Assembly (NCBI GenBank): GCA_032718475.1
Contig: JAUCBJ010003328.1
Location: 1-32,640 of the forward strand
Origin: Nemertoderma westbladi
Taxonomy: Eukaryota > Animalia > Xenacoelomorpha
DNA: 32,640 nt
Direction of reading: 5' to 3'
In this document: one piece after another, positions 1-30,509 of the stretch
Position numbering within the stretch: the stretch's first letter is position 1
Layout: every line of letters starts with the position of its first letter
Translations under genes and position numbers: made by a program
Notes under the pieces: model-generated
The model's input: the letters and a program-made list of their open reading frames with translations, nothing else
Databases searched by the model: none
Told to the model about the DNA's origin: nothing

Positions 1-331
1 TATGAAAGTTATCATATTAAATCTTTATCTTGAAAACAGGTGTTTTCAAAGCAATATAATTGAAGTTCATCATTGTCTTAATGGAATATTAGATTTCTGT
101 TGTATTGTTGTAATATTCATCCGCGTTAATGCAGTAGTACCATGGCCATGGTAGTACAGTAAATGCAGTGCTGCAAACTTGTTCTCTCTTACCGGTAGTC
201 TGAATGAAAGTCGTAGGCCTAACAGCCTAAAGCTGTAAAGCATTTCAGCATTTAGCCCTTAACTTCACATTTGCGCATTTCCTAAATGCATTTCCTTTAG
301 GCCTACATAATTAACCTTGGCGCTTGGCATA

Positions 332-3300
332 ATGTTCTCCGTGGTGAAGTTTATTGTCGATAATAGTCTATTAACAGTCCCGACCCGTTGGTTGTCGACT
401 GATAATGAGGTGGATGGAAATGGCGAAACGGTACGGGTAACTTACTGCCCTTACCCTTCAAACATCCAGAGATTATCTAATGAAAAGTTTAAAAAACTTA
501 GGAAACAATCAATGTTGGAACCATCTGATATGCTGGACTGGGAACATTACGATGTTTTTATTATCGATCAAAAAGGTAAGCCTCTAGCTGTCTAGCTCTA
601 CTGAATAATTACCGGTACATGTCTGCCTGTACAGGTGACAGGTAGGGTAGCCTGGCAGACCTTTACCTACCGGCAGATATTTTTAGTAAAACACTGTAAA
701 AAGTACCGGTCTGCCGGTAGCCCTAAAGTAAAGTGAAGTAAATTTTCTTCGGCCGTTAGGCCGGGGGCGGGTTTACACACAAAGTCTGACGACTTATTTC
801 CAGTGCGGTCCCCCCAGAACTTTACTCCCCAGAGGAAACTGCAGTACCTGTACCCATTTAGCTACCAATTAAGGATGAAAGGCTCAGATGCGCCCTGGCT
901 AGTCCCCTTTAAAGCATTCGTGCCGAAACGAAAACTGCCCTTGCCCATGTGGCATGTGGGGGGGGGGGGGGGGGGGGGGGATTGAACCCGCGACCTACAG
1001 AGAGATGTGAATTCAATGCAAATGCAACCACTACACCAAGGTATTTAACTGTTACCAGTTTTACCACTACACCAAGTGGGACCGGGTTGACGACCTACTA
1101 CAGTACTATGCTTTACTTTAGATAACGGTACCATGAGTTTAATTTATATTACAGATTCGTTCAACCTGGCGGAGGAACAATTGATTAGAGCCAAGGATTG
1201 CTTTACACCTTCGAAAAAAAGAGCAGTTGTTCCCGTTCAAAGGTAAGAACTATGATGTAAAGGCATGAGCATCATATTGGCTGGTTAAAATATATCTCCT
1301 TATGTGAATGAGTGAGTCTACAATACCGGTAGTAGGTTAGGGCGATGTAATACTGGTCTCATTGTTAGGTTTAGGTGGTCATTGAATTAAAGATAGGGTC
1401 AACTGGGGGAATTTGGGACATAAAACATTTTAGAAAAATATGTGAAAAATGTACAGGGTAAAATGTGTAGGGTGTAAAATGTACTAGTTGCTAGTTTTGT
1501 ATATTGGGTGATTTCAAAGCGCATCAGTGATCAGTATGCTACAACAGGTAGCCTACTGATACAGACAGACAAAAAACTGAAAATAGTAAAGCACAAACAG
1601 TTGCGTGTACCAGTGTGGGCAGTCTAAAATGCTTTTTTTTTACTATTTTCAGTTTTCAGAGGTACCGGTATAGCTAACATCTGAACAGTCAGTGTTCGGC
1701 TGTTGCAGTCTTTGTATCCTTTATTTATTTATTAGTCATACTATTTTTTTACAATCACAATATTTATTTTTTAAACCTATAGCCTATATGATGTCCCAAA
1801 TTACGCCTAACGTATAGGAAGCTAAATTTTTTCATGGATGTATGGCTATTATTATATATTATTATTATTATGTTATTATTAATTATTATATATTTTTCTT
1901 ATTTATATGATAATATGTACAGATCTGATATAGGCCTACCGGTATTTAAGAGAACTGTACGCCCTGAAATTCAGTGAATTGCGTCCTGCAATGAACTTTA
2001 TATATTTGCAGGGGTTCATTCGTTTATTCGTCCGGGCGAATAGATACACCGGTTAATACAATTCAAAATCGAAATACTCTTATTGAGTTGGGGCTAGATC
2101 TCGATCGAGGTGAGTCAGGTGAATTTTGTTACCGGTACCAGCATTTTTAGTCAAATACCTAACCCTATGTAAGCATTGAGCATTTTTGCATGACAGTTTT
2201 AATTAGGATTGGGGGCTGACTAACCATGCCCAAAATAATGAACCAATAATACTCTAGCTCCCCCCCCCCCCCCCCCCCTAGCCTGTTCAAATTCACTGTA
2301 CAAACTCATAAATTAATAATATTTTAGTAATTCTGTATTGCTGTATTAATTGTATACTTGTATACGTAACTGTACGGTCTGGTCTGGTGTAGCATTTTTC
2401 GGCACCTGAAACATGACTGTTCCTTAATTTTTAGTTTCATTAGCTCAACACCAATTAATTTATTACAGATAACAGCGTCGCACCACCTAACTTAGAAGAA
2501 CCAGAAAGTTTATTGGATGAAGTTGATGGAAGTTCAGAAATACCACCTGACTTAGAAGAACTAGAAAGTTTATTGGATGAAGATGATGGAAGTTCAGAAA
2601 AACATGGAGGTACCGGTATTTAAACTTTTTAAAATAGACTATCGGGTAGACAGACAGACAGCCAAGCCATATATCGAGAAGTAAAATATAATCTTGCTTA
2701 GAGTCCGTTCAAATGTCGATGGTGTTTTTCTAAGTGTCACAAACGCCAGTTTCATAACAAAGGGCACATTCCATCCTTCCTTACTGTGATTGTATATTTT
2801 GTTGTCCTATATTTTAACGCAGATCCATCGGTTAACGCTTCTGCATCGTGGCATGATGTTCCACAACCAACTACACTGCCGAACGCAGGCATTGCCATGC
2901 AACAGATGGCCAACAATGACACATGTTACCAGGGTGTCGGTGATATTTTTCAGGAGCTTGATGCGGCCACGACACAGGAGGAGTTTGATGCGGCCACGAC
3001 ACAGGAGGAGTTTGATGCGGCCACGACACAGGAGGAGTTTGATGCGGCTACGACCCAGCAGAATGGTTGGTATCATATCTGTTAGCGGCGTAGATTAGAC
3101 CCCAGAATCTACCCCCTCAGTTTGTTGGTAATATATAATTTAGCTTACTAGTTATACTACATTTATTATTTACTATTTCTGGCGTAGTTGGTCTTTTCCT
3201 AAATGCGGCCCTGCCTATACCCCACCCCCGGGCGGGGTGGGTGGGGTATAACTTATTCGCGTAAATACAGTAAGATACATGTTTGTGGGGCTTTCGCGCA

Positions 3301-6300
3301 GCACGAGACTCAGTTAACCTGAGAAGCTGTAATCTATAGTACTTGCAACCAATCCACTTCTCAGCTGAGCTTCTATATACAGTAAGTATGTAAACATCAA
3401 CCGGGCCAGCATACACCTGCCTCTCTTATGAATGCAATTAGTGGATGGAGGGACAATTTGTAAATTTCCCGCCCAGGTACGGCGTCTAGACGAAGTGGAT
3501 ATTTAGCGCCTCCTAGTGACGGACCGTGAAATTGTGGGAAGCTATAAACTCTATGTACTCATTGAATTACGAATATTCCATACGTCAATCTGTGAAAGTT
3601 TCATCAAAATTGATGCAATGCTAAAGTTATTAAACCTAGACGAAGTGATGCGGTACCGCTAGAATACCTACCGGTACCGACTGACAGACTGTCTGATTTT
3701 TGACCAAACCTCATATTCTTTCTAAACTTTTGACGTACTACATACAGTACATACAAAGTTTGGTTTAATATCATCAAGGAATTACAAAGTTATTAGTGAT
3801 CAAAAGTTAGACGTGTGACGACTACGACAGACAACTCGTTAATGGTACCCATATGCTAAGGCTTCGCTCACTTCGTGGCTCGACAATACAGTCCCAGTCA
3901 GTTATATATTGAGTTGATTATACATTAACTTAGTTCAGATAAGCCCTCCAGTATTCAAATTATTTATACTTCATTATATAATTTGTTTTTTTCTCCGTAG
4001 ATTGCATTGATACCAATGGAGATTGTGATGATGTTTCCATGCCACAAAAATCAAAAGACTCTCATATACCTAGAATCTGTAAACTCTGTCACAAAGAAAC
4101 GCTTCGAATTAATGATCATCTACGCAATCGACACCAAATACAACATGCCGGGGTTTTAAGCCGGCTGTCTCTGGAGAGTAAAGAACTATATTTTAAGAAA
4201 TCTGGTGTGATAAGATTATATAAAAGTGGTAAAAAGAAACCGAATCGTCGAATATCGCGGTGCTTAATTTGCAATAAATGTTTTTATAAGATTGGTGACC
4301 ATCTGACTTGTAAACACAATCTTCTACCCGGAGATCCAGAGCGTGAACGAATGTTACATGATCCAAGTCGTTATATACTACCTGCTATTGACGCTGGTGA
4401 ACCAGGTGAACCTCCTATGATGGATCAATTTATGGATTATTTGAAAGCAGATTATAATGAAGAATCATTAAAAGAAAGAGAGAGGGATATCTTAATGATA
4501 GCTTCGAGTGTGAGAACATTCTTTAAACATATGGGTGATAATAAAGAGAACTACATACTAAGGTTCGATGAGATAAGTGATCCACAAAAATTACATAATG
4601 CATACTGTCAAGTAGCTTCTGAGAAAATTCGTGGTGGTGGCACCCGGTCTGCCAATACACTGAAAGCCGTACTAAGGAGACTTCAGAGATACTTTGAATT
4701 TCTTGTCTTAAATGATGTTAGCGGGGCCGTGAAAGGCCTGACAGTGACAAAAGATTTACAACGGCGACAGAAGTCCGATGTTAGAAAGCACGCCTATACA
4801 GTTCGCCAAAGGGCTACGGAAACCATGCCTACAGCTGAGGAGATAAATAAGTTTCAGACGTCTTCATATATTGATAAAATTCGCGACAATATTACAAGGT
4901 TACCTGACGTTGATGACAAAGACGAACTGACAGAAATGCAAACGTATCTTATAAGTCTAATAATATACGACCTGGGATTGCGAGAGTGTGTTGTAAAGAA
5001 CTTAAAAGTGAAACATTTCAAGGAGGGTTTTGTAACCACAGATATCAGCGGTAATAATGTGTTTATTTTTCAAGTACCAAATCACAAGACCTCAGGATTT
5101 TATGGACCACAGAAAATTATCATTAGCTATAAGGATTACGTTTTATTAAAGAAATGGGTTTATATCGGTCGCACATTATACACTTCTCGTACGTTGTCTT
5201 CTGATTCAAGTTTCGTATTTGTGACACGTAATGGAGAGCAACTTAACAACACCAGCATCCCACTTAATAACCTGTGGCAAAAACTCGTCCCAGGTTCCAA
5301 GTCGAAGGCAGGATCGACTAGTTTTCGGCACGCCAAGAGTTTTTTCAACCAAAGACTACCAGGAGAAGTCCATGAAAAAGAAAACGCTGCTCACTCAATG
5401 GGTCATTCTAGGGAAACACAATTACGGATATATGAGGCTGTTCAGTCAACCAGTGAGGCTTTATCAGCACGTGATAGACATCAAAGGGCATTCAACTTTG
5501 CTCTTTCACATCCTGGTTCTACTGCTCCAGACACCAATGCTATAGGACCAGATTCCAATGCTACAGGACCAGATTCCAATGCTACAGGACCAGATTCCAA
5601 TGCTACAGGACCAGATTCCAATGCTACAGGACCAGATTCCAATGCTATAGGACCAGATTCCAATGCTACAGGACCAGATTCCAATGCTATAGGACCAGAT
5701 TCCAATGCTATAGGACCAGATTCCAATGCTACAGGACCAGATTCCAATGCTACAGGACCAGATTCCAATGCTATAGACGTTTCACCTTCAAGAGAAAAGT
5801 TTGTTTTTTATTTATATAATTATAGTTTTGTTTTGACCTCAGGCCAATATTATTTATTTATTAATATTTATTATATCACCACCATAAAAACACAAACAAT
5901 GCAAATTATAATATGCTACTATAAAATTTTGTTGTTGGTGTTTATGGTATACTGTCAATTAATTATGACCCAGACAATCAACCCTATATCCTACCCACAT
6001 AATAATATAGATTGAGATTTTATTGACTTCTTGCAGCGAACAACTTATAAACGAGCACAGTATATCGAATATTACATAATGTAAAATAGCGATAAATTGT
6101 AATTAAGAACGATTTACTACTAATAGTCTAAATGCTTATTAACAAGGACAGCTAATTCCGACCCACTAAAATATCCATGAAACTTAATTGGGCCGCAATT
6201 GTCGGTGTTGGATTTTCCGGGTCGCAAGTGTTCGGGTCGGAATTGTCGGTGTTGGATTTTCCGGGTCGCAAGTGTTCGGGTCGGAATTGTCGGTGTTGGA

Positions 6301-7592
6301 TTTTCCGGGTCGCAAGTGTTCGGGTCGGAATTGTCGGTGTTGGATTTTCCGGGTCGCAAGTGGTCGTGTCGGAATTGTCGGTGTTGGATTTTCCGGGTCG
6401 CAAGTGTTCGGGTCGGAATTGTCGGTGTTGGATTTTCCGGGTCGCAAGTGTTCGGGTCGGAATTGTCGGTTTGGTGGTCGGAATTGTCGGTGTTGGATTT
6501 TCCGGGTCGCAAGTGTTCGGGTCGGAATTGTCGGTGTTGGATTTTCCGGGTCGCAAGTGTTCGGGTCGGAATTGTCGGTGTTGGATTTTCCGGGTCGCAA
6601 GTGTTCGGGTCGGAATTGTCGGTGTTGGATTTTCCGGGTCGCAAGTGTTCGGGTCGGAATTGTCTGTGTTGGATTTTCCGGGTCGCAAGTGTTCGGGTCG
6701 GAATTGTCGGTGTTGGATTTTCCGGGTCGCAAGTGGTCGTGTCGGAATTGTCGGTGTTGGATTTTCCGGGTCGCAAGTGTTCGGGTCGGAATTGTCGGTG
6801 TTGGATTTTCCGGGTCGCAAGTGTTCGGGTCGGAATTGTCGGTTTGGTGGTCGGAATTGTCGGTGTTGGATTTTCCGGGTCGCAAGTGTTCGGGTCGGAA
6901 TTGTCGGTGTTGGATTTTCCGGGTCGCAAGTGTTCGGGTCGGAATTGTCGGTGTTGGATTTTCCGGGTCGCAAGTGTTCGGGTCGGAATTGTCGGTGTTG
7001 GATTTTCCGGGTCGCAAGTGTTCGGGTCGGAATTGTCTGTGTTGGATTTTCCGGGTCGCAAGTGTTCGGGTCGGAATTGTCGGTGTTGGATTTTCCGGGT
7101 CGCAAGTGTTCGGGTCGGAATTGTCGGTGTTGGATTTTCCGGGTCGCAAGTGCTCGGGTCGGAATTGTCGGTGTTGGATTTTCCGGGTCGCAAGTGTTCG
7201 GGTCGGAATTGTCGGTGTTGGATTTTCCGGGTCGCAAGTGTTCGGGTCGGAATTGTCCGCTTATTAATTACAGTATTATCCCATCGTATTGTTTTTTTTA
7301 TATTCATTCATACATTCTCATGTAATCTTACATATTTCATACTTTCTTGTTTAGGAATGTGAATAATACGAGGAAGATTAAACAACTGCTGAAATCCAAG
7401 CGGGCTGTTTGGTCACCGAATTCATCTGTACGTCTCTGCGAAGCCTTCAGAGAAGAGATAAACGGAAAGCGGATTCCGAGAAATAATACCAAAATTGCCT
7501 CTGTCCGTCGTCTATTTCCCGGAAAAACTGACAAACAAATATACCAACGACTCAACGTTCTCAAACTAAAGATGAAACATGCCAAACCTTAA
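332..7592 (+). CDS. Spliced tyrosine recombinase gene (~949 aa): N-terminal domain, acidic linker, 2 C2H2-like Zn fingers, YR catalytic domain, GPDSNAT repeat, Myb/SANT-like C-terminus
   Basis: Hand-built exons: 332-575, 1155-1242, 2012-2109, 2469-2609, 2823-3065, 4001-5798, 7355-7592. All six introns are GT..AG, the phases match at every junction (1,2,1,1,1,2), and the 2850 nt contain no internal stop. AATAAA overlaps the stop. Not confirmed by transcripts. Confidence 0.72.
724..1041 (-). mobile_element. tRNA-derived SINE with Nin/Deu-like central domain (in intron 1)
   Basis: Minus strand has an A box (TGGTGTAGTGG), a B box (GGTTCAATCCC), a Nin-like core GCCTTTCATCCT..TAAATGGGTAC and a TTTAC/TTCAC-type tail. 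Confidence 0.65.
1394..1815. mobile_element. Degenerate MITE, possibly pogo-like
   Basis: Perfect 12-bp inverted repeat AATTTGGGACAT (1410-1421) / ATGTCCCAAATT (1791-1802). Exact ends unclear. Confidence 0.4.
2482..2600 (+). repeat. 60-bp coding duplication (PPxLEExESLLDExDGSSE x2)
   Basis: Two near-identical 60-bp units inside predicted exon 4. Confidence 0.9.
2951..3058 (+). repeat. 27-bp coding minisatellite (QEEFDAATT, ~4 copies)
   Basis: CAGGAGGAGTTTGATGCGGCCACGACA units in predicted exon 5. Confidence 0.9.
3280..3886. mobile_element. Non-autonomous dispersed repeat, Helentron/HINE-like (copy 1)
   Basis: Ends GTGGGGCTTTCGCGCAGCACGAGACTCAGTTAAC and AATGGTACCCAT..AAGGCTTCGCTCACTTCGTGGC, a GACA/GAC microsatellite, and internal degenerate TAGACGAAGTG repeats. 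Homologous to 16511-17290 and 26911-27140. Confidence 0.6.
4001..5798 (+). CDS. Main exon: Zn fingers plus tyrosine recombinase catalytic domain
   Basis: Fingers CKLC..H..H and CLIC..H..H. YR catalytic residues occur in order: R (GLRECV, 4981), K (HKT, 5086), xxR (TSFRH, 5326), H (MGH, 5404), Y (RIYE, 5431). The ORF tail after 5798 is AT-rich intron read-through. Confidence 0.88.
5536..5776 (+). repeat. 21-bp coding minisatellite (GPDSNAT/I, ~11 copies)
   Basis: AATGCTAYAGGACCAGATTCC units in frame downstream of the YR domain. Confidence 0.95.
6143..7258. mobile_element. MULE/foldback-like non-autonomous element made mostly of a 44-bp tandem array (~23-24 units), in intron 6
   Basis: Unit GGAATTGTCGGTGTTGGATTTTCCGGGTCGCAAGTGTTCGGGTC, with an inverted partial copy (GGACA..AATTCCGACCC) at 6146-6164. 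A 9-bp direct repeat GCTTATTAA at 6134-6142 and 7259-7267 is TSD-like. The array is certain; the MULE class is inferred. Confidence 0.62.
7355..7592 (+). CDS. Terminal exon encoding a Myb/SANT-like helical domain
   Basis: KRAVWS..LCEAFREEI..IP..LFPGKTDKQIYQRL pattern. Acceptor TTTCTTGTTTAG ending at 7354 is in phase 2 with the donor at 5799. Confidence 0.65.
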
Positions 7593-7596
7593 TAAA
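7591..7596 (+). promoter_or_regulatory. Candidate polyadenylation signal of the YR gene
   Basis: AATAAA overlapping the TAA stop at 7590-7592. Confidence 0.45.
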
Positions 7597-7779
7597 CAAA
7601 CCGAACGTTATATCATATCTGTCGGCCTAGTTAAATTCATAGTTAAGTGAAGTGGGGGTTCTATAACTCACAAGAGCTAATCCTGAACATTGTTGTTGGC
7701 AAGCCTCATATTTGGACCCAATTTTATTGGAAAAATGTATAATGTTTCTGCATATAAAAATATGATCTATAAATGATTA

Positions 7780-8163: not shown

Positions 8164-8878
8164 TAATAATTAAAATTAGTTTTTAGACAATTTATTTGCA
8201 TTTCTCATTGCTCGCCCCGCCCCCTTTAGGAGGACTTAGTATTAGATTGTGACTGACCGACATCAGTGTCAGTATTTCGATAACGGGTATTTCGTCGGAT
8301 AATAATTTGGATAATGGGCGTAACAGGCGTTATGGATCTAGGCATTCTAGGGCGTTTCGTCCCGCAATATTTAAATGGCTGTAAAAATGGGCCTGTAATT
8401 GAAAAATTAAGTTGTTTATTAATTATTTGAAAGATAGACAGATGTTATAAGTCCCTAATAATAGTTAGTTAAGAATTAAAATAATACAGTATTAGGTCGT
8501 GGCAATGACCACTTTACACATCGAAACATTAACAATACAAGTTGTCTAATAATAAGCATGATCGATAAATTATTTATGCTTATTTTTACACGTTAAGTAT
8601 CATAAATGTACAAATAATCTAATATGTGATATATTTCTGACTCACAAAATTTATGTAAAATCAATCAAAAAATTTCTTAATTTCAATAATATCCGGCCTC
8701 TGTCACAATAGCCACATGGCCATATAGCCGTTACGCACTACCGCCACAATTTACACTATATGGCCCCGATATAAATCAAATTTCACACAAAGGCCACATC
8801 TGTATATATCATGGCCTTATGGTGTCGTTTAAGATATATATATATATGTACTCAATGTCTATAGCGGCGATCTGAAGG

Positions 8879-10126
8879 TCAATGCGTGGGACCCTCACGA
8901 GGAACATTGCGGGCGCGGGCTGCCTTTTGGGGAGCACCCTGGGCGACCTTGCGGTGTGCACCCTGACCCTGGGCGACGTTGAGTGGAGCACCCTGACCCT
9001 GGGCGACGTTGAGTGGAGCACCCTGACCCTGGGCAACGTTGAGTAGAGCACCCTGACCCTGGGCGACCTTGCGGTGTGTACCCTGACCCTGGGCGACGTT
9101 GAGTGGAGCACCCTGACCCTGGGCGACGTTGAATGGAGCACCCTGACTCTGGGCGACGTTGAGTGGAGCACCCTGACCCTGGGCAATGTTGAGTGGAGCA
9201 CCCTGACCCTGGGCGACGTTGAGTGGTGCACCCTGACCCTGGGCGACGTTGAGTGGAGCATCCTGACACTGAGCGACGTTGAGTGGAGCACCCTGACCCT
9301 GGGCGACGTTGAGTGGAGCACCCTGACCCTGGGCAATGTTGAGTGGAGCACCCTGACCCTGGGCGACGTTGAGTGGTGCACCCTGACCCTGGGCGACGTT
9401 GAGTGGAGCATCCTGACACTGAGCGACGTTGAGTGGAGCACCCTGACCCTGGGCGACGTTGAGTGGAGCACCCTGACCCTGGGCGACGTTGAGTGGAGCA
9501 CCCTGACCCTGGGCGATGTTGAGTGGAGCACCCTGACCCTGGGCGACGTTGAGTGGAGCACCCTGACCCTGGGCGACGTTGAGTGGAGCACCCTGACCCT
9601 GGGCGACGTTGAGTGGAGCACCCTGACCCTGGGCGACGTTGAGTGGAGCACCCTGACCCTGGGCGACGTTGAGTGGAGCACCCTGACCCTGGGCGACGTT
9701 GAGTGGAGCACCCTGACTCTGGGCGACGTTGAGTGGTGCACCCTGACCCTGGGCGACGTTGAGTGGAGCACCCTGACCCTGGGCGATGTTGAGTGGAGCA
9801 CCCTGACCCTGGGCGACGTTGAGTGGAGCACCCTGACCCTGGGCGACGTTGAATGGAGCACCCTGACCCTGGGCGACGTTGAGTGGAGCACCCTGACCCG
9901 GGGCGACATGGTGAGGAGCGTCCTGGTCGACATATTTTCTGAACACGAGCTCCCGATCGGTTGGCACTATTCTGATAATATGTACACGGGCAGCCATCAC
10001 CATCCCTTCCACGTTAGTGGCCGACTTCGCCCACCCAAACAGATTCCACCCACGATCTCCTTACCGGTCGAGTTTACCAACAACGTGGGCCCGGGCAGCG
10101 CCCCCTGGGATGCGATTCGTCTTTGC
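8879..10126 (-). pseudogene. Unknown protein exon with (QGQGAPLNVA)n repeat and a premature TAA at 10061-10063
   Basis: Acceptor CATGTAG ending at 10127. The frame reads AKTNRIPGGAARAHVVGKLDR*GDRGWNLFGW..VFRKYVDQDAPHH, then the repeat, then TGA at 8879. GC-rich against AT-rich flanks. Confidence 0.45.
8931..9910. repeat. 30-bp minisatellite, ~33 units
   Basis: Unit GGGCGACGTTGAGTGGAGCACCCTGACCCT; variant units recur at 150-bp spacing. Confidence 0.97.
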
Positions 10127-10847
10127 CTACATGATTATATAAAAGGTGTAATTGAAACATAAAAAAATTTGGATATTCTTGTCCCATGCATTTTTACAAG
10201 TATTTTTGTTATTCTATAAATAGTACAATTCAACATACTGTATGTAGTAATTCAATTAATTAATATAATTCAAAAGCTTGAGTTCTAATTTTTGCTATTA
10301 GTTTTTGTAAATATGATAACTTTTATCCAAAAACACATTAGGTTCTAAAATGTCAAACATGTGAGTGCCATATAGTTAGTTTTTTAGTTTATACTAATAT
10401 GATTCATTACAGCAAATGTATTGTAGTTTTGTATTATATTATAAATAATATTATATATTATTTATCTATAATAGTAAATAATAATATAATATCTTAATAA
10501 CTATTTATTCACAAAGAGCGACCAATACATTCTATTTGTAAAGTAATATATTTTATCTAATAACCTTTAACATTAGAGCTCTGTAAAATCAATATAGGGA
10601 AGAATAGAAAAGATATACTTTATATGTCTAGACTCTCTCATTACACTGAAAGTCAACTTGTTTTCCGTTACCATAGACACTGGTGCTTTACTTTACACAT
10701 AAGGTACATTTCCTATTTATTTATTACTCAATTCTAGGTGCGCTTTATCGAAGAATAATGAGGTAAACTCATTACTGCAGAAATAATGAGGGCGGAAACG
10801 TCGTGACTCATTATCGAATACTTCCTCAAGCACGACATCGGCATTAA

Positions 10848-11558
10848 GGGGGGGGTACACCATTTTGGTCCAAAATATGTCAAAATTTTTTTTATGGTAT
10901 ATTGTAATGCACAATTGAATGGTGTTTCCAAATCTGAAAACCGCTATTTAATAGCTCTTTTAGTTTTCAAGTTATGTAAATTTCCATTTACGGAATCCTA
11001 TTGAAATTACTATTACTATGTATAATGAAAGGTCGATTATCTCCAAATATTTTTTTCATGAAATTGTCAACTTCAAAACCCTACTACTTCTACAATTTTT
11101 GAGTAATTAGTCTGAAACTTCCTGTGGGTGTCTAGATAGCCACCCTGCATAAAAGTATCAGGCAACTTTTCGAAATTTTTTGTTAATAAAATTTAATACT
11201 ATTTATAAAAAACCTAAAAATTTGCATAAATTTGCAGCGCCACCTAGCAGAGCAGAATTATTTTAACAAAATTTCGCCTGATAGTTATGTTGCCCCATCT
11301 TTGATCTATCATATAAAATAACTTTCATGTGATTAGGTTCAAAACTGTAAAAGCCTTAGGGTTTTAAGCGCAACCAAGTTTTTTTTGTTGTTAACTAGTA
11401 TTAACTAATATTAAATAGCGAAAAAAAAAAATTTTCTGACCTGTCATGTAGAATAGCATCTTAGGCACCTATATGCCAAATTTTAGCCAAAATCAAACAA
11501 TTTTGAAACGCTGAGAGTGATAAATCGAAGAGTTGTCCGAAAATGGTGTACCCCCCCC
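10848..11558. mobile_element. Kolobok-type non-autonomous DNA transposon (711 bp)
   Basis: TTAA TSDs at 10844-10847 and 11559-11562; perfect 19-bp TIR GGGGGGGGTACACCATTTT. GG..CC termini with TTAA fit Kolobok rather than piggyBac. Confidence 0.85.
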
Positions 11559-12099
11559 TTAAGTACCCAAACGTGGTCCACTATTCGAAAACAGGGACAC
11601 GGCCTACCATAGTAGGTGCCCCTGCACACTGCCCCTCTGCATCCTTGGACGATGTTGATCTGTAAATACAAAATATATTGTGTGAAAATATATTATAATA
11701 TCTTCATAAAATACCTTTTAGGGTTAGCCACAAAATGACCACTATAATAAATATATCAGATTGAAAAAATGAAAAACTATAGATTGCGTTCAATGTAGAT
11801 TGCTTTTTCTCAAGAATATTTTGCAGGTACAGCTTTAGTATTTAGTATTCTATATTACAAATTCAGAACATTGTTATATACATTTACAACATACTACTAT
11901 TTTTAATTTTAGTAACTGTGTGTTGAGTTATGACATTAAAGAATAAACATGACAATAAACTCACCCGTTGTAACTGCAATGATTCTAGTCGCATGTAAAA
12001 GCCTTTGAGTTCCTTCGATGAGCTTATGAAGGATGGAAGACTCGATACTAGGGGTATTGTCGGCGGGTCGTTCATCGGCTCCAACTTCGCGTCCGTGGT

Positions 12100-12957
12100 A
12101 ATCACCGGTAGATTAACAATCGTGTTTGTTTGGGGTATCACCGGTAGTTTAACAATCGTGTTTGTTTGGGGTATCACTGGTAGATTAACAATCGTGTTTG
12201 TTTGGGGTATCACCGGTAGTTTAACAATCGTGTTTGTTTGGGGTATCACTGGTAGATTAACAATCGTGTTTGTTTGGGGTATCACCGGTAGATTAACAAT
12301 CGTGTTTGTTTGGGGTATCACCGGTAGATTAACAATCGTGTTTGTTTGGGGTATCACTGGTAGTTTAACAATCGTGTTTGTTTGGGGTATCACCGTTAGA
12401 TTAACAATCGTGTTTGTTTGGGGTATCACCGGTAGATTAACAATCGTGTTTGTTTGGGGTATCACAGGTAGATTAACAATCGTGTTTGTTTGGGGTAATC
12501 ACCGGTAGATTAACAATCGTGTTTGTTTGGGGTATCACCGGTAGATTAACAATCGTGTTTGTTTGGGGTATCACCGGTAGATTAACAATCGTGTTTGTTT
12601 GGGGTATCACCGGTAGATTAACAATCGTGTTTGTTTGGGGTATCACCGGTAGATTAACAATCGTGTTTGTTTGGGGTATCACCGTTAGATTAACAATCGT
12701 GTTTGTTTGGGGTATCACCGGTAGATTAACAATCGTGTTTGTTTGGGGTATCACCGGTAGATTAACAATCGTGTTTGTTTGGGGTATCACCGGTAGATTA
12801 ACAATCGTGTTTGTTTGGGGTATCACCGGTAGATTAACAATCGTGTTTGTTTGGGGTATCACCGGTAGATTAACAATCGTGTTTGTTTGGGGTATTACCG
12901 GTAGATTAACAATCGTGTTTGTTTGGGGTATCACTGGTAGATTAACAATCGTGTTTC
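12100..12957. repeat. 36-bp minisatellite, ~24 units
   Basis: Unit ATCACCGGTAGATTAACAATCGTGTTTGTTTGGGGT; one unit near 12497 has an extra A. Confidence 0.97.
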
Positions 12958-13228
12958 CAGTGGTTGTTGGTTCTACTATCCGTATGAACGATCTGACTCC
13001 AACTCCAGCAGAGTGAAAATATAACGCCGTAGTATGGGGATGCTCAGCCAACACGTTCGTGGGGCCTTCGCGCAGCACGAGGCCCAGTTATGAGATACAA
13101 ATTAAAATTGTGCGACTGTATCACAAAATCAGGTTATGAGAGATTAACCCACACCACCAATTAATCAAAGAAAGGGGGAAAGTACGTGTTCACCCCTTTT
13201 AATCTGCACCCCCCCCCCCTCCCACCAA

Positions 13229-19870: not shown

Positions 19871-20619
19871 AACATTTAGTGTCATTTTTGTAATTTATCT
19901 GTATCTTTGAGTTAGGTTTGTTGGGAAAACCGAGATTCGTGACTTTTCCTAAAATTTAATGGGCTATTAAAGAGAGCAAACGCCATTTACATGGTATGTT
20001 AGTTTTCGTGTTGTGGTCCCTTTCTGGAACCCATCTCCAGTATTTTTTGTGCTAAAATTTTCAAAAGTTTTTATAATACACTAAAATTAATTTATTTGCA
20101 GTATATAGCGATTTTTCCACACTGATCACGAATATTAAACTCAAATATAACATTCGAGAACATTTTTGGTAATATTGAATGTGCCCTCTTGGGCACGAAA
20201 AAAACAAGTAGTGCAAATATGTAAATGAAAATCACCACAAAATCAAATTGCTTTTAAGACCATATGGGTTTTTTGGGATGCTAATCACAAATTTGACACT
20301 GAAATATATCCCTACATTGTTGATTAAGGCAATTTTGTAATTTTTTGCTACTTGTACCTACTTTTCGTTCTGGGGCACTAGAATGGCACCACAATTGGTT
20401 GTAACTAGTTTCCTCGTGCTCAGCGACCTCAAAAACCCGTATACGTTCAAAATTTAATTATCAAACCAAAGAAAGCATTTTTTAGTTTGACGTTTTTTTA
20501 CCCTTTCAAAACTATGGCATAACAGTTAAATCGTCTCATGTTTTGTATGGGTGGATTGTCTGCCACATCATCCAGCTGCGGACCAACCGCATTCAGATGT
20601 TGCCCTTTTGGGATTGGTA

Positions 20620-20746
20620 CTGATCGAAACATTACCAGGAATAATGCTAGTACTATTTCCAGAAGTAATATTGCAATGCAACATGACTTAAATTCCCTTT
20701 TGGATGGAACTGTGCCAGTTGGAGGACATAAGAATTGCTTAGCCAT
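20620..20746 (-). pseudogene. hAT transposase C-terminal dimerisation-domain fragment
   Basis: MAKQFLCPPTGTVPSKREFK, then after a frameshift CNITSGNSTSIIPGNV. Resembles 'LA..YL..P..SV.SER.F...GNI....R..L.P.NV'. Confidence 0.5.
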
Positions 20747-21619
20747 CTGAATTGCTTAGCCATCTGAAATTATATAAATTATTATAGAATATTGGCTAAA
20801 TGAAAATTAAAAAATAACCATTTATTGCATGGAAAACAAATAGCTCCATTTTCCATATAAATATATCAAGGTATATATCAAAATATATCAAATATATCAA
20901 GACCTGAGTTGCCTTGCGGTTCTGCAGCACGAAAGCCCCACATGTTAGTTAGTTTAGAGATTGCTAGACTGTAATTAAAATGTTTGGAATAATATGTAGT
21001 TTTGATTTAGCCATACAAGTAATAATTATAACCATATGGTATGTGACAGCGTTGTGTTATTTCTATTAAAGGAACAGAATAATTAAAAATATTTATAACT
21101 ATAATTCCATTATAAACTTCTGTATATATAATTAATTATAAGCTTATTTTCTTATACCTATAAAATTATTCCTTATTATATATTTATATTTGGCAACCCT
21201 AAAAAAACATACATTACACAAAATAAATGCTTGATTGAATCAGTAACAACTATATCCAATCCACTTAGAATAAGGTAGGTAACAATAGGTGACATCAAAA
21301 ATATCTATACCATAGGTAGTTTTCACCACCATGGGCGTGAACACATTGTCAGATTTCCAAATCTGACAAGAGTCTAGAGACTTTTGAAGATATTATTACA
21401 GTTGGAGGAATTCCAAATAAGCGCTCGAAGAACAACCTGATTGTTAGACAAGCATCTTGAGACTGTAGATAATTACACACATGATTGCATATCCACATGG
21501 TTGACCATGAAAGGAGTAATTGTCAACCCCTTCCCAAGACCCATTTCTGTTATCTTTTTATCCATTTCAGCATGATCTGCTGCTTCCGTAATGAAAGGAC
21601 ACTGATACCACTGCCCAGA

Positions 21620-23400
21620 CACTTTAATATCCTTTTTGATAAAATAAAGGAAAATATTCAATTAAAAAGGGATTCCAATGCTGTTGCAGATCATTTTCGC
21701 TCAGTCAGCATCAATGTTGGTGATAAAGAGTGGACTACATTTGATACGATCACAGAAGATCGAGTTACTAAAATAATTAATGAACTGAAAACGACCTCTT
21801 CGCTGATTGACCCCATCCCAGCATCATTGTTGCGTCGTTCAGAACCAGTTATAAGTGTAATAAGACCTATTATTACAAGATATATCAATGTCTCTCTAAC
21901 AACTGGTTGCGTCCCTGACAAAGTAAAAACTGTTGTGACTAGCCCTCTCATTAAGAAGCGAAATTTGCATCCAAATGTTAAGAATAACTACAGACCTGTT
22001 TCTAACCTTGAATATGTTTCAAAAATATGTGAAAAAGAAGTAGCTTTTCAGTTACAGTTACATATGGCGAAAAATCGTGTTCTTTCAAAGTTCTTATCAG
22101 GGTATCGAAAACATTTTTCAACTGAAACTATGCTGACACGTATTCATAATGATATCATGGGTGCTTTGGATAACAAAAAGCTAGTTGCCTTATTACTATT
22201 GGATCAATCGGCAGCATTCGATACAGTAGATTATAATAAACTCATTACTTGCCTCATGGATATAGGAATTAAAGGGACGGTACTAGATTGGCTAAAGAGT
22301 TATCTTAGTGAGAGATCTTTTTGGGTAATGATCAAAGGAGTTCGATCTTGTGTGGTGAAACTTGATTCTGGCGTCCCGCAAGGCTCGATTTTGGGACCGT
22401 TATTGTACTTAATATATACTCTGCCGCTTGCTCAACTTTGCATGGACATGAACTTAAACTTTCAGATTTATGCTGATGATACACAGCTGTACTTCATCTT
22501 TGCTCTTAAAGATCTAGATATTATCAATAATGAGATAGTGAATGTGATAAATATACTAGATAATTGGATGGTGTCTGTGAACCTTATGTTAAATAGTGAC
22601 AAAACCGAGCTTATGATAATTCGTAATCGCTTTGCAATTGCTGATATTGAACCTGTAACTCTTATTTTTGGTGAGAAAAATGTGACTTCAGTATCTCATT
22701 TCAAATCTTTAGGATTCATACTTGATGACAAAATGAACATGGAAAGACACATTTCGTCTATTGTAAAGGTATCCAATTATAATTTAAGGAATATATCAAG
22801 GATAAGAAGATATTTATGTAGGGAGCAAACTGTAAAGCTGATGACGTCTTTAATACTATCGAGAATGGACTACTGTAAGTATTTATTAGTTGGTATTCTG
22901 GATTATCTACAGCAAAGATTTCAAAGGGTGATTAATAATTGCGCACGTGTTGTAAATTGTGTTAATAGGCGTTCTCATGTGACACCTCTACTCAAAGACC
23001 TTCATTGGTTGCCAACATCTTTCAGAATCAGGTATAAGATTGCATTAATAACTTGGAAGTGTTTAAATGGAGTTGCTCCTGATTACTTGGCTGAATTAAT
23101 TCAAATTAACTCCAAAGTGACACGATCGCAGTATAACTCAACTTTGGTAGTACCATCAACCAACTATAAAACATTTGGTGATAGATCTTTTTCAGCGGCT
23201 GCACCGTGAATCTTTAATGACCTACCATTGGAAATCAGGATAACGAGCAGTCTAGCTTCTTTCAAAACTATGCTTAAGTCACATTATTTTCTTAAGGCTT
23301 TTCCGAACTAATATTATGTAATGTACATATAAATGCGCATTAGACTTATTTATTTATAGATAGTGCGCTATATAAATTTGGTGTTATTATTATTATTATA
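21620..23400 (+). mobile_element. 5'-truncated non-LTR retrotransposon (L2/Daphne-like, CR1 group), reverse transcriptase
   Basis: Motifs NYRPVSNL, LLDQSAAFDTVD, GVPQGSILGPLL, YADDTQLY and LKDLHWLP. One premature TGA at 23207-23209, after which the frame continues IFNDLPLEIR..FKTMLKSHYF to TAA at 23311. 3' GCGCA..TGCGCTATATAAAT stem-loop and (TAT)n tail. Confidence 0.93.
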
Positions 23401-23499: not shown

Positions 23500-25662
23500 T
23501 CACAAAGTATCACAGATCATTTAGAGTTCATGTAGTGCAGATTTAAACTCCACTCCCTCTTCAGGGGTTAGGTCCAACAACACGGTAACTGTGCAGTATC
23601 TACTGCATATAGAGTTTTTGCAACAGGTGCTGTGCTTTGCATGTTAAACATGGCTATGTCCCTTGCACATTTCCCAAGGCCCATATTGAAGCGCCTATAT
23701 TTCCTAGCCCGATTTATCCGCAGGTTGCCCTGAGTTGTATTCAAACATTTTCTATTGTCGCGGAAAGCAATGGACATACAACCCAGCGAAAACTCAGATT
23801 CAACTTCGCTTTGTTTGCTGCTCGAAAATAGAACTAGATCTTTGTTATCGGAAGTAAAATGGTTTGATTGGTTGGATTGATAGGGTTCATTACCCTTAAC
23901 ATGTATGAGTCGGGATACTTCCCTAGGTGCCATCCAAGCGCCCAGTGATTGCAGGTTAATGTGCTCGTGGACCACAATAGCGGTCCGGCGACGGGTGTGT
24001 GGCATTTACCGGCAATTTGGGGGTTTCTTTAAATAGCTGATCCAATACTGGCCCTCGCATGTGGGCCGCACCCCGAGGATTTGGAGTAGCGAAGTAATCT
24101 AGCTTGTAATTCCTCTCGATAATACCCAATGCTATTGGGATGAGACACGGATCGAGAGCACCTTTTTGGCAACTTTCCCTCAGTGATTTTGCCAGACACT
24201 CAAGGTCTATGGATGGATTCTTTCCAAGCAGAAGGAGCATTGGAAACTCCATAGAGAAATTTCCAAGGTACTTTCTGAGATTGTGTACGGAATTGTACTC
24301 CCAGTAGTCCCCCTTCTCAATGCCATTAAGTTTTGGGTATAGCATCGTTGGTGCCAAGCGATCTCTCAAAGAGACTGTTTGCAGTGGCAACGAGACAAAT
24401 GGAAAAGAATTTGAGCTTACGTTGGCTTTCTAAAATCTCCTGTCATATGTCAGGTTTGTTATCTCTAATCCATTCTCTTGCGTATTCTAATATGATTAAT
24501 TCAGATTTTATGATTGCTACGAAGTCATCACTGCTTTGAATCTTACTCAGATATTAGGGCAGGGTACAAACCATGCCAACCAAGGTAGATCCTGTATTTA
24601 ACATCCCCATTACCATACCGGGAGGAACCTTAACAGGTAGCTCTTCTTCATCAATGAAGTTTTGGTATCCATCAGTCATTTCACGTACGTCTGGACACAT
24701 CTATTAGATCTGAGGTCACAGCACAGTTCACCAAGAACCCCGTTTTTATCCTTGACAGATAGCCCCTTTCCCAATCGGAGACTTTTTGACTCAAAAAGGT
24801 TCTCTAACATCAAGCAGATTGTTGTTAAGGTTCTGTGGTTGTGACTCTCGCAATTCTTAAAGATTGTGACTAAAATCCACTCTAAAGCAGGGATTGAGAT
24901 ACACTCTTATCTTCGATTATCTTCGATTTCGGCCACTTTCCCATAGATCTTAGATTTTGTCTACTGTACCTGCTTTGAGGGCACTACCATCATGCTTCTC
25001 CAAAATTATCTTAGAAATCTCCTCTATGGCCGATTGGAAGAAACGAAACATGATGCACGGCGAATCTATAGATCTCGCATCCTTCTGTCCTCTTCCCAAC
25101 TGCTTGATGAAGGTAGAGAGAGTTGTTATTCTAGCCCAGAGTTGCTCTTGAGTAAATTCCTTTTGAATGGTGCCTCAGCGAGTGTAGCTCGCATGTGGTC
25201 GAAGTAACTTGGTCCCACTGGGTAACCCAGGTTTTTCTCAAGAAACTGGTTTGTTTCCAAATACACATCAGCGGCTGGGCTATTGACATCTAAGAACGGG
25301 GAGTATGTCATCCTACCCTTTCTCAACTCATCAGCACGATGGATGCTTAACTTGTCTATCCATAAAGCGAGTAGAGAGTCAGGGTCTGTTTTAAGATCAT
25401 CCCTATATAGTTCAGCGCATCCTTGAACGACATCCAGGTCGACTTGAGAATTTATTAATTCATGGCGAAGTGTTAACTCTTTCCAGTCTGTAGAACGGCG
25501 GTACGGTTGTGTATTAGCAGTCTCATGATATTTCAGGGTCCGAATAGTGATATTTATAACATACCGTGTACATGTCCCGGTTCATACTGGTGGTGCGCCT
25601 ACATAGGCGTATAGGTTGTTGACGATGGGAGCCAATGCTTGATGAGCGAGTTTTGAAAACAT
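23500..25662 (-). pseudogene. PB1: Endogenous viral element: near full-length orthomyxovirus-like (Articulavirales) PB1 RNA-dependent RNA polymerase
   Basis: Collinear motifs read by hand across frames: LYAYVGAPPV*TGT (25614), GRMTYSPF, motif F KQLGRGQKDARSIDSP..RFF (~25100), damaged motif A EDN..EC (~24915), FESKSLRLGKG, motif B PGMVMGMLNTGST (24596-24619), motif C QSSDDF (24521-24538), motif D LGTNDAIPKT (~24350), motif E WEYNS..GNFSMEFP..GKNPSIDL (~24220-24303), DNRKCLNTTQ, and C-terminal MICDTL* at 23500. Confidence 0.93.
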
Positions 25663-26805
25663 GTTTAAAAGACCTCTTGCTATTGCTTACACTAATACAA
25701 ACAAGGCAACAAAGAGCTCAGTAGCAGCACTAAATAATTACCTTTGTGTCATCAAATGCACTAAAGATATAGCATGTATGAGTATGGAGGAACTAGGATA
25801 CCACAAATATAATTTCATTAAGCGATACAAAAAAAAATCAGGAGAAAAACTGGAAACCTCGACCCTTAGGAGTTACTTATACGGCCTATTGCACCATTAT
25901 AAGAAATTATGTATTAGGATTGTCTTGGAGCTGAAGGGATTTAAAGACTCTAAGGAGGTGTTTCATGCCAGGCTGTATCAGTTCAAGACCGATGGCAAGG
26001 GTATTGCCAGTGACTCAATGGATTCCCATAATTTCTCTACCATGAAGTCAAGCAGACAGCTTTAACATTCCACCAAACAGGTGTTGCGAAACACATTGTA
26101 TGTTATTTAAACAACCCAATTTGGTTACCATCATGGGTTCGAAATGAGAAACGTGATGGTTGGTAAACTAGTTATTTATTAGTTAGTTACCTTCACTTGC
26201 TACAACTGAAAGAGTGCAATATCAAAACCAGAAAGGGTTCCGTGCCAGGTAGAGTGGTTGTCCTAAAGGCATACAAGGTACCTACAGATGAAGGAATAAC
26301 TAAGACTTGTATGTCTAAGGATGGTTAATCTCTCTAAGGATGGTACATCATGGTTTTGCAACCAGCCCATTAGGAAGATGCAAATTTTGTTGTCAAATGC
26401 TCTGAAATTAACACGGAGTGTCGCAAGATCACCCTGATATCATATGCTGCTCAAACTATTGTTGATCAACATAAAACAGCAACCTATGCCCAGAAACAAC
26501 TAGGGTCATTCTATTTCAGCCACATCATCCCACTACATCAATACTATTGAAATGACATAGTATAATGTGAGCAACACCCTCTCACACATTACGTTATATC
26601 TGGTGGTGCAATGGATTTAGATGTGGATAACAACACCACAGAGCATTGTTTGAAGGTATGATACCTGCATCGACCACTGCATCAATGGCTACAACGTCCT
26701 TATCATCCACTAACACAGTACAGTGCACTGATGTCTCTATAGATAGGACAATGGACTTGATTTTTAGAAAAAGTAAGTTCTCTGGGAATGTGAACATATA
26801 CTGTA
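25661..26805 (+). pseudogene. Degenerate Crypton (DUF3504-type) tyrosine recombinase
   Basis: NTNKATKSSV..EEL..F..KKKSGEKLETSTLRSYLYGL..F..SKEV..A....K..GKG, then across stops and frameshifts VLRNTLY..FG....EMR, IKTRKG, WFCNQPI, KIT, LGHSISATSSHY and a C-terminal FSGNVNI. Confidence 0.8.
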
Positions 26806-26910: not shown

Positions 26911-27140
26911 AGAGCCACGAAGTAAGCGAACCTTAGCGTAGTGGAACCATTAATCAACCTGTCGTTATGTTGATCTGTTGCTATATTTATGCAGTGTTCA
27001 ACTTTGAACGTTAATTACTCGATCAATCCTCAATGAAATGTAACCAAACTTTGTAGACAATAGTCTTGTCAAAAGTTTATAAATTTTAGAATTTTAGGAA
27101 ATTTAGAAATTTGCGTGGGGCTTTCATGCAGCACCAGTAT
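26911..27140. mobile_element. Helentron/HINE-like dispersed repeat (short copy 3, inverted relative to copy 1)
   Basis: GAGCCACGAAGTAAGCGAACCTTAGC is a near reverse complement of the right end of copy 1. Internal AACCAAACTTTGTA..GTCAAAAGTTTA is shared; the copy ends with GTGGGGCTTTCATGCAGCAC. Confidence 0.55.
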
Positions 27141-27720: not shown

Positions 27721-29580
27721 CCTTTTACCTGCCACCCCTCGAAATTTTTTTAAAAATTATAAATTTATCATGTTTTTGACTTTAGATTCGTTGGGTATGA
27801 AAGGATCAGAACGATTTTTTCAAAACTACCCACTCTTTGACTCAGGGAGTGTATGTTCCCATATGGGAACATTGGCCGTTAAACAGACAAGGTAAATATT
27901 TATAACATTTTAAATAAACAGCATAGTTATAAGCATTAAAAACCATTACATCATTATTAGATCGTATTGAATCAGCATTAGATTGTGTATATGACAAGTA
28001 CAGACATATGTATTGTATGAAATATGTAAAATACCAGAGGATATAATATAAACTATACTGTACTCTGTATAATTGAAAAATAACACAAAAACAATATACT
28101 TGTATATATTACAAAATAGTAATAGTTTGCTTAGAGATCTTTATACTTGAGGTCATGATATAGTTCAAAACAAACAGCACTGCAATCATGGTGTAGACGA
28201 ACTTCAAAATTTCTCACATTTTTTCCTGCAATTCTTCCTGCAGTAGACACATCGACCTTGAGTGGTGGGGATTGCATTATGGCCAACACCATCATATCGC
28301 ACATCATTCGGAAGATCATAGTGATGGCCGCCACTAGTTGATATTCGTTTGCTGGCATCATATCTCATACGTGTTACAGTTACTGAAGATAGGAAGGACA
28401 GATGACTATCAGCATCCTTACCACCATGGATAGTAGTGTGAATGCGCCATGCTGCTACCAATGACACATTCAGTGCATTTATGAAAAGGGGACCACCACT
28501 TCTTGCCAGTGATCGTTGGGCGATAGGATCCAAGAAGACAATCCATCAGATCAACTCCACCCATGCCCTGATTATACATGCTAACAGCATGTGGTTGTGG
28601 AACGTTGATAACCCCTCCTTTCACACGACACTTTGCAGAATGCAATGGCGTCACTGCATGACAGGTAGATAACATTTGTACAGTGGAATTATCATTCCAC
28701 TTCACTAATGCCAGTGAACCTTTGCTAGCCACTTCATATTTGCCACGCTCCAACTTCTTGAATTGTGATGTAGCTGTTAGTACATTCTTTCCCCCACAGG
28801 TTCGATTTTCACGTACAGTTCCAGTAGCATGCCACCCTTTATCAGCCAAATCCATCATCAGGTCATAGCCAGTGAAAAGGTTGTCAAAAAACACCTCATG
28901 CTTGGCAGGATTGCTAACTGATTCAACCACAGATAGCATTGTGTTAGTGACATGCTCACCAAGAGGCCCATTACGTTTACTGTCTTTACCAGTGTATATC
29001 TCCATATGCAATAGATAACCATTGGATGCTGCCTGCGTCCAAATCTTATACCCAAAACGTATTGGTTTTCCACGGATGTATTGTCTAGCACTGTGGCGTC
29101 CACGGTAAGGAACCATGGATTCATCTATGCTCAACTGCTCCCAACAGATGCAAACTTTATGAAATTCTTATTTATACGCTTGTATATGGGATTTACTTTG
29201 GCAGCTTTGTCACCTTCAACCAGCTGGTTATTATCTGCCAAATGCAAATGTTTCTTTATTGCACGGAAACGATTCCGCGTCATGGTTTGGGCCACAAATT
29301 CAACATGAAAATCTGGAGAATTCGACCAATAATCACTCTCTGATGGCACCCAATGATACCCAGAAAAAAAGCAAAATTCCAATAAACTGACAATTAATTA
29401 TCTGTTAGAAATTGTATAATCCGGTGAATTCTTTTATATTGCATATAGCAAAGACTGTCTCCGAATCTCTTCCACTAGTTCATCATCGAATATTTCACAA
29501 AACAACTCATAAGGTGTCTTCAGTAACAGTTGTGTCTCCTTTTCTGCAAGATTATCTGCACATTCCTTATGGATGGTTTT
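27721..29580 (-). mobile_element. Decayed piggyBac transposon (PGBD2/3-like transposase, frameshifted, 5'-truncated)
   Basis: TPYELF..FDDE, SGYH..YWS..MTRNRF, SIDESMVPYRG, KPIRFGYKIW, FFDNLFT, YNQGMGGVDLMD and a Cys-rich tail RCVYC..C..LH..CF..YH ending at 28131. TTAA (27717-27720) plus CCTTTTACCTGCCA terminus; palindrome ATGTTCCCATATGGGAACAT at 27853-27872. Confidence 0.92.
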
Positions 29581-30509
29581 TTAACAGGGGCGATCAGGAG
29601 CGCGTTATTACTGCCGCACTGCAGCACTGCTGCTAAACACAAAACTGCTTCTCACCGCTGGATGGCGCTAACCTGGCCGTCCGCTAATATATTTTACTAA
29701 TTTTATACGGCTCCTGCAAATCGCTTGTTCCTTTCTCTGTTGATCGCTCAACAGAGAGCTAACTGTTCGAATCTATGAGCCACGTGGGAATAACCAAAAC
29801 AATAAACCCGAATCGGCTCCCTAAGCTACTTAAAACGAGTGCGGTTGGCCTAGAACTCAGAGTTCACTTATCGCAAATACTGGAATTCACTGGGTAGAAC
29901 ATATAGAATGTGAGAATATTTTAATGTTAAGGGGGATAGATCTGTTACTTTCGTAGGTGCTGAAACTTGGCCTTCGGCTGGTTTTAGACCAGCAAACTTA
30001 CTACTGCTGTACAGTATACTATACTGGACACTGCTGTCAACCTGTTGCCCCGCTATTTTAAAATAACCACCTAGCGTGAATAGTCTATGGTATTCTAAAT
30101 AATCACTTAAACTACTCTCCGCTATGCTGCGTACAAATTCTTATTTTAACGCTAAATAATTACAGTCATAAATATGAAACAGCGTACTAATTACTAAGTG
30201 TTCCAGAATGCGCAATTCTAATTTATTACGCACCGGGTTACACTAGTAACAGCCTCAATACCGTATTATTTTGGCCTAATCAGTAATTATTTATCGTAAA
30301 CTAAGAAATAGAAATCAATCAAGGGAAAAGGGCCCCTGTCTAAGCATTCATAATTTAATCAGGCACACTTTAGCAACACAACACAAATAGCGTAGCACTA
30401 AGTTAGTAGTATGGCAGATAGCGCTAACTACACCAATCAGCTAGTGCACTAAATACCCATACGTTAGTACATCAGTATACCAGTGTTAGTCATCCAATCA
30501 GTCAGTCAG

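Follow-up and report, generated by a model that had tools for sequence, protein, structure and literature searches.

Gene structure

The window analyzed here is a stretch of 32,640 nt from contig JAUCBJ010003328.1 of Nemertoderma westbladi, and near its left end lies, on the plus strand, a gene for a tyrosine recombinase (YR). The gene is intact and very divergent, and it belongs to a known, thinly studied animal recombinase family. Its predicted chain of seven exons, joined across six GT-AG introns with phases 1, 2, 1, 1, 1 and 2 in order, comprises 949 codons with zero internal stops (Table 1). The initial annotation of this DNA, made from the letters alone, had proposed such a phase-compatible, stop-free chain, and we obtained the same one on re-deriving it.

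Splice sites were ranked within positions 300-7700 using a generic matrix of general splice-site frequencies, whose training did not come from N. westbladi. The donors of introns 1 to 6 ranked 2, 3, 1, 27, 79 and 153 among 524 GTs, the first three being the top three of all, and the acceptors ranked 27, 4, 62, 30, 2 and 9 among 401 AGs. The donor of the last intron is weak (AAA/GTTTGT), and this intron has 22 stop-free GT-AG alternatives. Stop-free chains arose in 14 of 20,000 random GT/AG draws at most 60 nt from the boundaries; because the possible GT/AG combinations are very numerous, a stop-free frame cannot by itself fix the junctions. A codon-usage score trained on exon 6 supported coding in exons 1 (+6.0), 4 (+16.8), 5 (+11.5) and 7 (+5.6), the maximum in stop-free non-coding background being -2.2 for 80 codons (n = 284) and 7.9 for 46 codons (n = 2653), and was uninformative for the short exons 2 and 3. 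The tandem repeats in exons have periods of 60, 27 and 21, all multiples of three, and those in introns periods of 44, 16, 14 and 3. Exon 7 ranked first of 689 window peptides (E 0.0026; runner-up 0.53) against a profile built from the C-terminal tails of relatives alone, exon 7 itself being excluded.

The introns had been described as holding four transposable element insertions. Repeat and inverted-arm analysis bore out three of these, while the fourth, resembling a short interspersed nuclear element (SINE), was assessed only by visual inspection; neither ARAGORN nor Rfam gave a match for that stretch. All four are intronic, which has a probability of about 0.03 under random placement. The intact frame and the four intron-only insertions together show selection on the coding sequence, without telling whose.

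Table 1. Features of the recombinase gene and of the surrounding DNA in the window (MITE, miniature inverted-repeat transposable element; LTR, long terminal repeat; aa, residues of the 949-codon model).
Feature	Position	Strand	Details
Exon 1	332..575	+	aa 1-81; start codon; putative small globular domain; donor 2/524, codon score +6.0
SINE-like insertion, intron 1	875..1075 (approximate)	-	judged by eye
Exon 2	1155..1242	+	donor 3/524; in frame
MITE-like insertion, intron 2	1393..1815 (approximate)		17-nt inverted arms 1405-1421 / 1791-1807, 88%
Exon 3	2012..2109	+	acceptor 4/401, donor 1/524
Exon 4	2469..2609	+	acidic; in-frame 60-bp repeat x2
Exon 5	2823..3065	+	low complexity; in-frame 27-bp repeat x4
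Dispersed repeat, intron 5	3270..3885 (approximate)		partial copies 13051-13090, 16510-17276, 26912-26953
Exon 6 (core exon)	4001..5798	+	two zinc fingers, core-binding and catalytic domains, linker of 21-bp repeat x12; acceptor 2/401, donor 153/524; 3' boundary uncertain
Two C2H2-like zinc fingers	4078..4317	+	aa 298-316, 359-377
YR core-binding and catalytic domains	4408..5511	+
Catalytic codons	R 4981, K 5086, T (for H) 5317, R 5326, H 5404, Y 5431	+
44-bp minisatellite element, intron 6	6148..7262		24 copies, 6190-7257; inverted arm at 6148
Exon 7	7355..7592	+	Myb/SANT-like helix-turn-helix (about 7395-7565), then stop
Repeat-rich frames	8812..13087	-	30-bp repeat x32 and 36-bp repeat x24; convergent with the recombinase; Cys/His-rich stretch
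(AT)7 microsatellite	8834..8847		1.24 kb past stop; candidate right end; 1 of 3 window microsatellites
MITE	10844..11562		30-nt inverted ends starting TTAA
Exon-like 85-codon frame	20501..20755	-	beside 17-bp duplication of likely acceptor; no family match
3' part of non-LTR retrotransposon	21485..23400	+	RVT_1 in 574-aa frame; end near (TTA)n tail
Broken endogenous orthomyxovirus-like PB1 gene	23570..25600	-	Flu_PB1 E 6.5e-06 and 5.9e-08 in two stop-free pieces; further pieces between stops and frame changes
Decayed Crypton-like remnant	25646..26560	+	QRICH1 E 0.08; core-binding-domain match to YR profile E 0.0008
Broken piggyBac-type transposase	28200..29600	-	DDE_Tnp_1_7 E 1e-47

Fold and active site of the recombinase core

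An AlphaFold model of the core, made with a 66-row alignment, reached a predicted local distance difference test score (pLDDT) of 92.7, compared with 35.7 when the core was folded without an alignment. The best Foldseek rows for this model were Cre, and structural matching gave Z 17.2 over 299 residues (root mean square deviation 4.2) with XerH and Z 16.4 over about 295 residues with Cre. The family profile also matched XerA at E 1.6e-12. The window core is predicted from the model to fold as a complete Cre-like tyrosine recombinase, so structure prediction bears out the enzyme class first read from the letters. Cre, XerH and Tn1549 Int would have the same core-binding and catalytic fold (Z 15-17), although at only 10-17% identity, and the window protein differs from them by its added zinc fingers and Myb-like tail. 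Single-sequence searches of Pfam, PHROGs, NCBIfam and PDB did not name the core as a YR, and neither DUF3504 nor DUF3435 matched it at E<=1, in line with the earlier statement that DUF3504 motifs are missing. Pfam matches of the window protein to YadA and gp350 were dismissed, since they are produced by the 21-bp repeat.

The R-K-xxR-H-Y set is retained as first described, with R599, K634, R714, H740 and Y749 in model numbering and T711 in place of the first histidine. T711 aligns with the His of HxxR, the family profile reading TsfR opposite HVLR of XerA and XerD. At this position 75 non-redundant relatives have T (53), N (13), Y (4), A (2), M (2) or C (1) and never H; the replacement is therefore a family trait, and what had been singled out as a departure is the norm. 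The His of the HKT motif is kept in 74 of the 75. Because the HxxR histidine is absent, catalytic activity has to be inferred.

Flanking domains and upstream exons

The zinc-finger region of the window protein matched the N-termini of relatives in phmmer, and a zinc-finger motif was present in 39 of the 48 long sequences scanned (a number that includes one bacterial false match). A Myb-like tail was found in 27 of 49 relatives' tails, a partly circular count, as 21 tail segments had seeded the profile. The Atlas neighbors of exon 7 were Myb families, all below 0.9, and Pfam Myb matched it at E 0.11. Since many relatives share them, C2H2 fingers, YR and Myb-like tail make up the standard architecture of the family. 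The initial annotation had called this architecture unusual, a description that does not hold for the fingers, the tail or the presence of upstream exons.

The sole peculiar part of the window protein is the region encoded by exons 1 to 5, which had no match in any relative. Exon 1 had no significant library match (a weak PWWP-like PDB row stood at E 0.92) and 0 matches in a word-based protein search; a viral-contig match (L120) was dismissed as chance because it lies antisense to a phage gene. Exons 1 and 2 may resemble the N-terminal module of DUF4806-type transposon proteins, a likeness that no search confirmed. Two of the related loci, L009 and L079, share two coding blocks 3-5 kb upstream of the core exon, so the window gene is not alone in having upstream exons that add modules. 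One shared block (L009:2680-2859 / L079:3191-3409) resembles about half a double-stranded RNA-binding motif (Staufen_C E 1.6e-4, dsrm E 0.027), and judging from these matches the recombinase of these loci is possibly fused to an RNA-binding domain. The best acceptor into the core exon was in phase 1 in 10 of 16 relatives, as in the window. The 5' exons of the window gene are likely a variable add-on region.

Distribution of relatives, copies and shared ends

An exhaustive phmmer search over 1.84 billion representatives returned 62 proteins at E<=1e-3 with 22-33% identity, the closest at about 33%; 61 were left once the top match (P0001), a bacterial tail-fiber repeat protein, was removed. Phage_integrase was matched by 26 of the 62, and DUF3504, DUF3435 and GCR1_C by none. 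Word-based protein searches gave 0 matches for exon 6 and 1 for the family profile. Cluster identities were examined for 30 of the 62, and 7 of these name an animal (Nematostella, Actinostola, Hydra, Artemia, Gambusia, Paramormyrops and Penaeus japonicus), placing relatives in cnidarians, crustaceans and fish. The Artemia relative is fused to SET, and the P. japonicus cluster includes the telomere-targeting YR of the Marsupenaeus japonicus endogenous nimavirus. Within each of the Nematostella, Hydra and Paramormyrops clusters there are several loci. Homology, the HKT..[YH]G motif and the tail profile agree with the proposed membership in an animal YR group marked by HKT..YG..MGH..Y and a SANT-like tail. 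Of the further description of this group as poorly characterized, it is true that it is thinly studied; it is not wholly uncharacterized, since nimaviral members are described in PMC10871703.

A motif scan, which covered 30 of the 64 parts of the metagenome collection and is biased toward one motif variant, yielded 119 loci, 67 of them with a family YR (one marginal). A frame of at least 500 codons was present in 24 of these 67, and many others were broken. Scans for further loci with P0002, the window core and alignment A4 gave none, and viral contigs scanned with the window core and A4 gave no family member. Two loci of the same assembly (L007 and L070) are 93-96% identical copies that carry different nested transposons.

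To look at element ends, 3' flanks were compared in the 14 relatives that have 3 kb or more of downstream sequence. In three of them (L079, L010 and L076), a common 3' block stops at (AG)n, 3.1-3.6 kb past the stop codon, and the DNA beyond is unrelated; for L079 this implies an element of at least 11.6 kb. Three others (L011, L021 and L043) have a common 800-bp block, found in no other of the 119 loci, which stops at a short (TAA)n 3.9-5.8 kb past the stop codon. All six have T or N at the HxxR position. The 800-bp block is non-coding, is about as conserved as coding DNA and begins near TTAGGG repeats; it is possible that it represents a terminal binding-site array or an RNA.

Pfam domains in 32 neighbor frames of relatives were mostly those of transposons, with one SET, one DUF7869 and a few weak strays, and none belonged to virion or replication families. 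No flank gene conserved across subfamilies was found, on contigs that are short. The only flank proteins common to the window and relatives were LINE and piggyBac pieces (LINE, long interspersed nuclear element) and two weak rows (E 0.004-0.007).

Placement and comparison with known systems

A 76-sequence tree, from which fragments and 13 near-duplicates were omitted, put the window protein on a long branch joining fish and Artemia proteins with weak support. Topology tests with 2000 replicates rejected neither this grouping (approximately unbiased test, p-AU 0.51) nor one with the nimaviral pair (p-AU 0.28), and rejected a grouping with a Nematostella subclade at p-AU 0.025, a value from only these 2000 replicates.

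The best described members are the YRs of endogenous nimaviruses. According to the sections of Kawato et al. (PMC10871703) consulted here, these carry SAM-like as well as C2H2 domains, keep five of the seven key residues and include some multi-exon members, the latter in the whispoviruses that target 28S ribosomal DNA (rDNA). The elements bearing them insert into telomere repeats or 28S rDNA, related decapod proteins also exist outside viruses, and the same sections place these YRs as not closely related to DIRS, Enterprise or the Cryptons cited there. Nimaviral YRs and the window protein belong to the same sequence family (the MjeNMV YR shows 27% identity over 247 aa plus a zinc-finger match), and share C2H2, SAM-like and catalytic domains with an incomplete classical residue set. 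What sets the window protein apart from them is its Myb-like tail and the five exons that precede the core exon, and the window, unlike nimaviral YR loci, contains no nimaviral gene, telomere array or rDNA.

The window family probably corresponds to CryptonV of Repbase, the two being equated by description and not through CryptonV sequences. CryptonV elements are presented as YR-only DNA transposons from cnidarians (PMC8869645), some families of which insert into microsatellites (PMC8869645, citing Kapitonov and Jurka 2012, for the Repbase families). Like them, the present family is multi-locus in Nematostella and Hydra, and relatives end at (AG)n or (TAA)n, although the p-AU of 0.025 separates the window protein from the Nematostella subclade. 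CryptonA, F, I and S and the DUF3504 genes are also eukaryotic and YR-only, commonly with introns and without terminal inverted repeats, as far as PMC3212892 and PMC13465315 describe them. The window gene is likewise a eukaryotic YR with introns, but neither its core nor the 62 relatives match DUF3504 or GCR1_C, and TxxR replaces HxxR. The Starship captains (DUF3435) are intron-bearing eukaryotic YRs as well and supply an Atlas neighbor cluster at 0.90; the window protein is, however, animal and not fungal and has no DUF3435 match at E<=1. DIRS and Ngaro were dismissed: as the initial annotation had noted, no reverse transcriptase (RT) or RNase H is linked to the YR, the sole RT of the window lying in a separate LINE-type frame 14 kb away.

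Surrounding DNA

The gene has only 331 bases of window upstream of its start codon. Downstream, the minus-strand frames at 8.8-13.1 kb are partly coding by codon score and share with the recombinase a style of coding minisatellites. They had no Pfam match and are broken by the MITE at 10844-11562, by a shift of frame near 12.49 kb and by a stop codon near 10.06 kb. This MITE is, we presume, Kolobok- or piggyBac-like. An (AT)7 microsatellite is a candidate right end of the element, although with three microsatellites in 32 kb its closeness to the gene is unremarkable and may be due to chance. A search of the window for motifs common to a 5' and a 3' end returned CATGGCC seven times against 2.7 expected, with three copies lying at 14.6-14.8 kb; it gave no shared end of greater length. 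The palindromes TACCGGTA, TAGGCCTA and GGTACC are clustered in the first introns of the gene (1-4000) and near 14.5-15 kb (14500-15300).

The remaining recognizable DNA consists of mobile and viral remnants (Table 1). What had been named a Crypton at 25.7 kb stands as a Crypton-like remnant; its assignment to the DUF3504 type is weak, as DUF3504 itself was not detected there and the nearest indication is QRICH1 at E 0.08. No telomere arrays or rRNA were present in the window by repeat scan and Rfam, and no viral DNA gene was found in 12 long window frames and 53 peptides from 0.7-20.8 kb.

Nature of the element

We consider that the gene likely encodes the recombinase of a DNA transposon that would target simple repeats, probably of CryptonV type, and would put the probability of this at roughly 0.6. 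Multicopy dispersal and shared 3' ends at microsatellites are seen in relatives alone. Several points weigh against this reading. The window protein, on a long branch for which alternative placements remain, sits far from the loci that show ends, and lacks the HxxR histidine. Among the relatives, 8 of the 14 with long flanks have no shared 3' end, the 5' end was captured in none, and the shared 3' blocks might reflect orthology between related hosts. The intron-only insertion pattern also fits host selection.

The gene might instead be the integrase at one end of a large cargo element or of an endogenous large DNA virus, by comparison with nimaviruses and Starships, which we regard as unlikely. 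A nimavirus YR in the same family, a grouping that the topology tests retain, the multi-exon YRs reported for 28S-targeting whispoviruses (PMC10871703), the DUF3435 clusters among Atlas neighbors at 0.90, the partly coding minisatellite-rich frames downstream and the very short upstream sequence all speak for it. Yet no viral DNA gene was found in the frames scanned, and neither telomere arrays nor rRNA in the window, the rest of which consists of decayed sequences of LINE, piggyBac, Crypton and RNA-virus origin; the viral contigs scanned held no family member; and in relatives the neighbor frames lack virion and replication families, no flank gene is conserved across subfamilies, and six loci seem to stop 3-6 kb beyond it. 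A broader scenario joins these threads: the YR would mobilize a large, intron-tolerant, Starship-like animal cargo element carrying the repeat-rich neighbor genes, in one family with compact microsatellite transposons and nimaviruses, and with the HKT histidine replacing that of HxxR. We find it quite doubtful. A transposon of this kind could also have been domesticated, leaving the host with an immobile gene whose product serves for site-specific recombination or for binding DNA, an outcome that would suit an intact frame amid decayed mobile DNA, insertions confined to introns, an extra N-terminal region and nearest relatives at only about 33% identity among 1.84 billion representatives. This seems rather improbable, given that the protein retains all residues of the family set, whereas PMC3212892 reports loss of the catalytic Tyr and second Arg in domesticated Crypton genes, and that relatives with apparent element ends also have upstream exons and nested repeats. 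Orthologues would moreover be expected of a conserved host gene, though the host lineage may be unsampled. Finally, exon 6 might be a real YR within a 949-aa model that is partly wrong, ending at the in-frame stop 6013-6015 or using other junctions, or the gene might be silent. The low rank of the last donor (153/524), the ranks of 27-62 of 401 for the acceptors of exons 2, 4 and 5, the 22 stop-free options for the last intron and the lack of matches to exons 1-5 in relatives would allow this, but exon 7 matches the family tail profile, the three best donors bound exons 1-3, exonic repeat periods are all divisible by three and in 10 of 16 relatives, too, the best acceptor enters the core exon in phase 1, all of which makes it very improbable.

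As a simple-repeat-targeting transposon, the element would excise as a circle, a form proposed for Cryptons in PMC3212892, and then re-insert into a simple-sequence repeat, a target preference suggested by relatives and by the nimaviral members. Going by general YR chemistry, four YR subunits would pair both element ends, Y749 would form a 3'-phosphotyrosine, and two strand exchanges via a Holliday junction would release or insert the circle. The zinc fingers and Myb-like tail would bind subterminal or target repeats in the manner of arm-binding domains, and the HKT histidine, which is nearly invariant, may take over from the missing one of HxxR.

Implications for the family

The window gene belongs to a widespread animal recombinase family on which almost no functional work exists. 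On sequence comparison, nimaviral integrases and multicopy, microsatellite-ending animal elements form one family, a link not found in a literature search that excluded Repbase Reports and one 2020 review. If true, this link suggests a source for the site-specific integrases of large DNA viruses, and the family would yield element ends for the testing of excision, together with repeat-targeting recombinases that would work without a residue thought central to catalysis.

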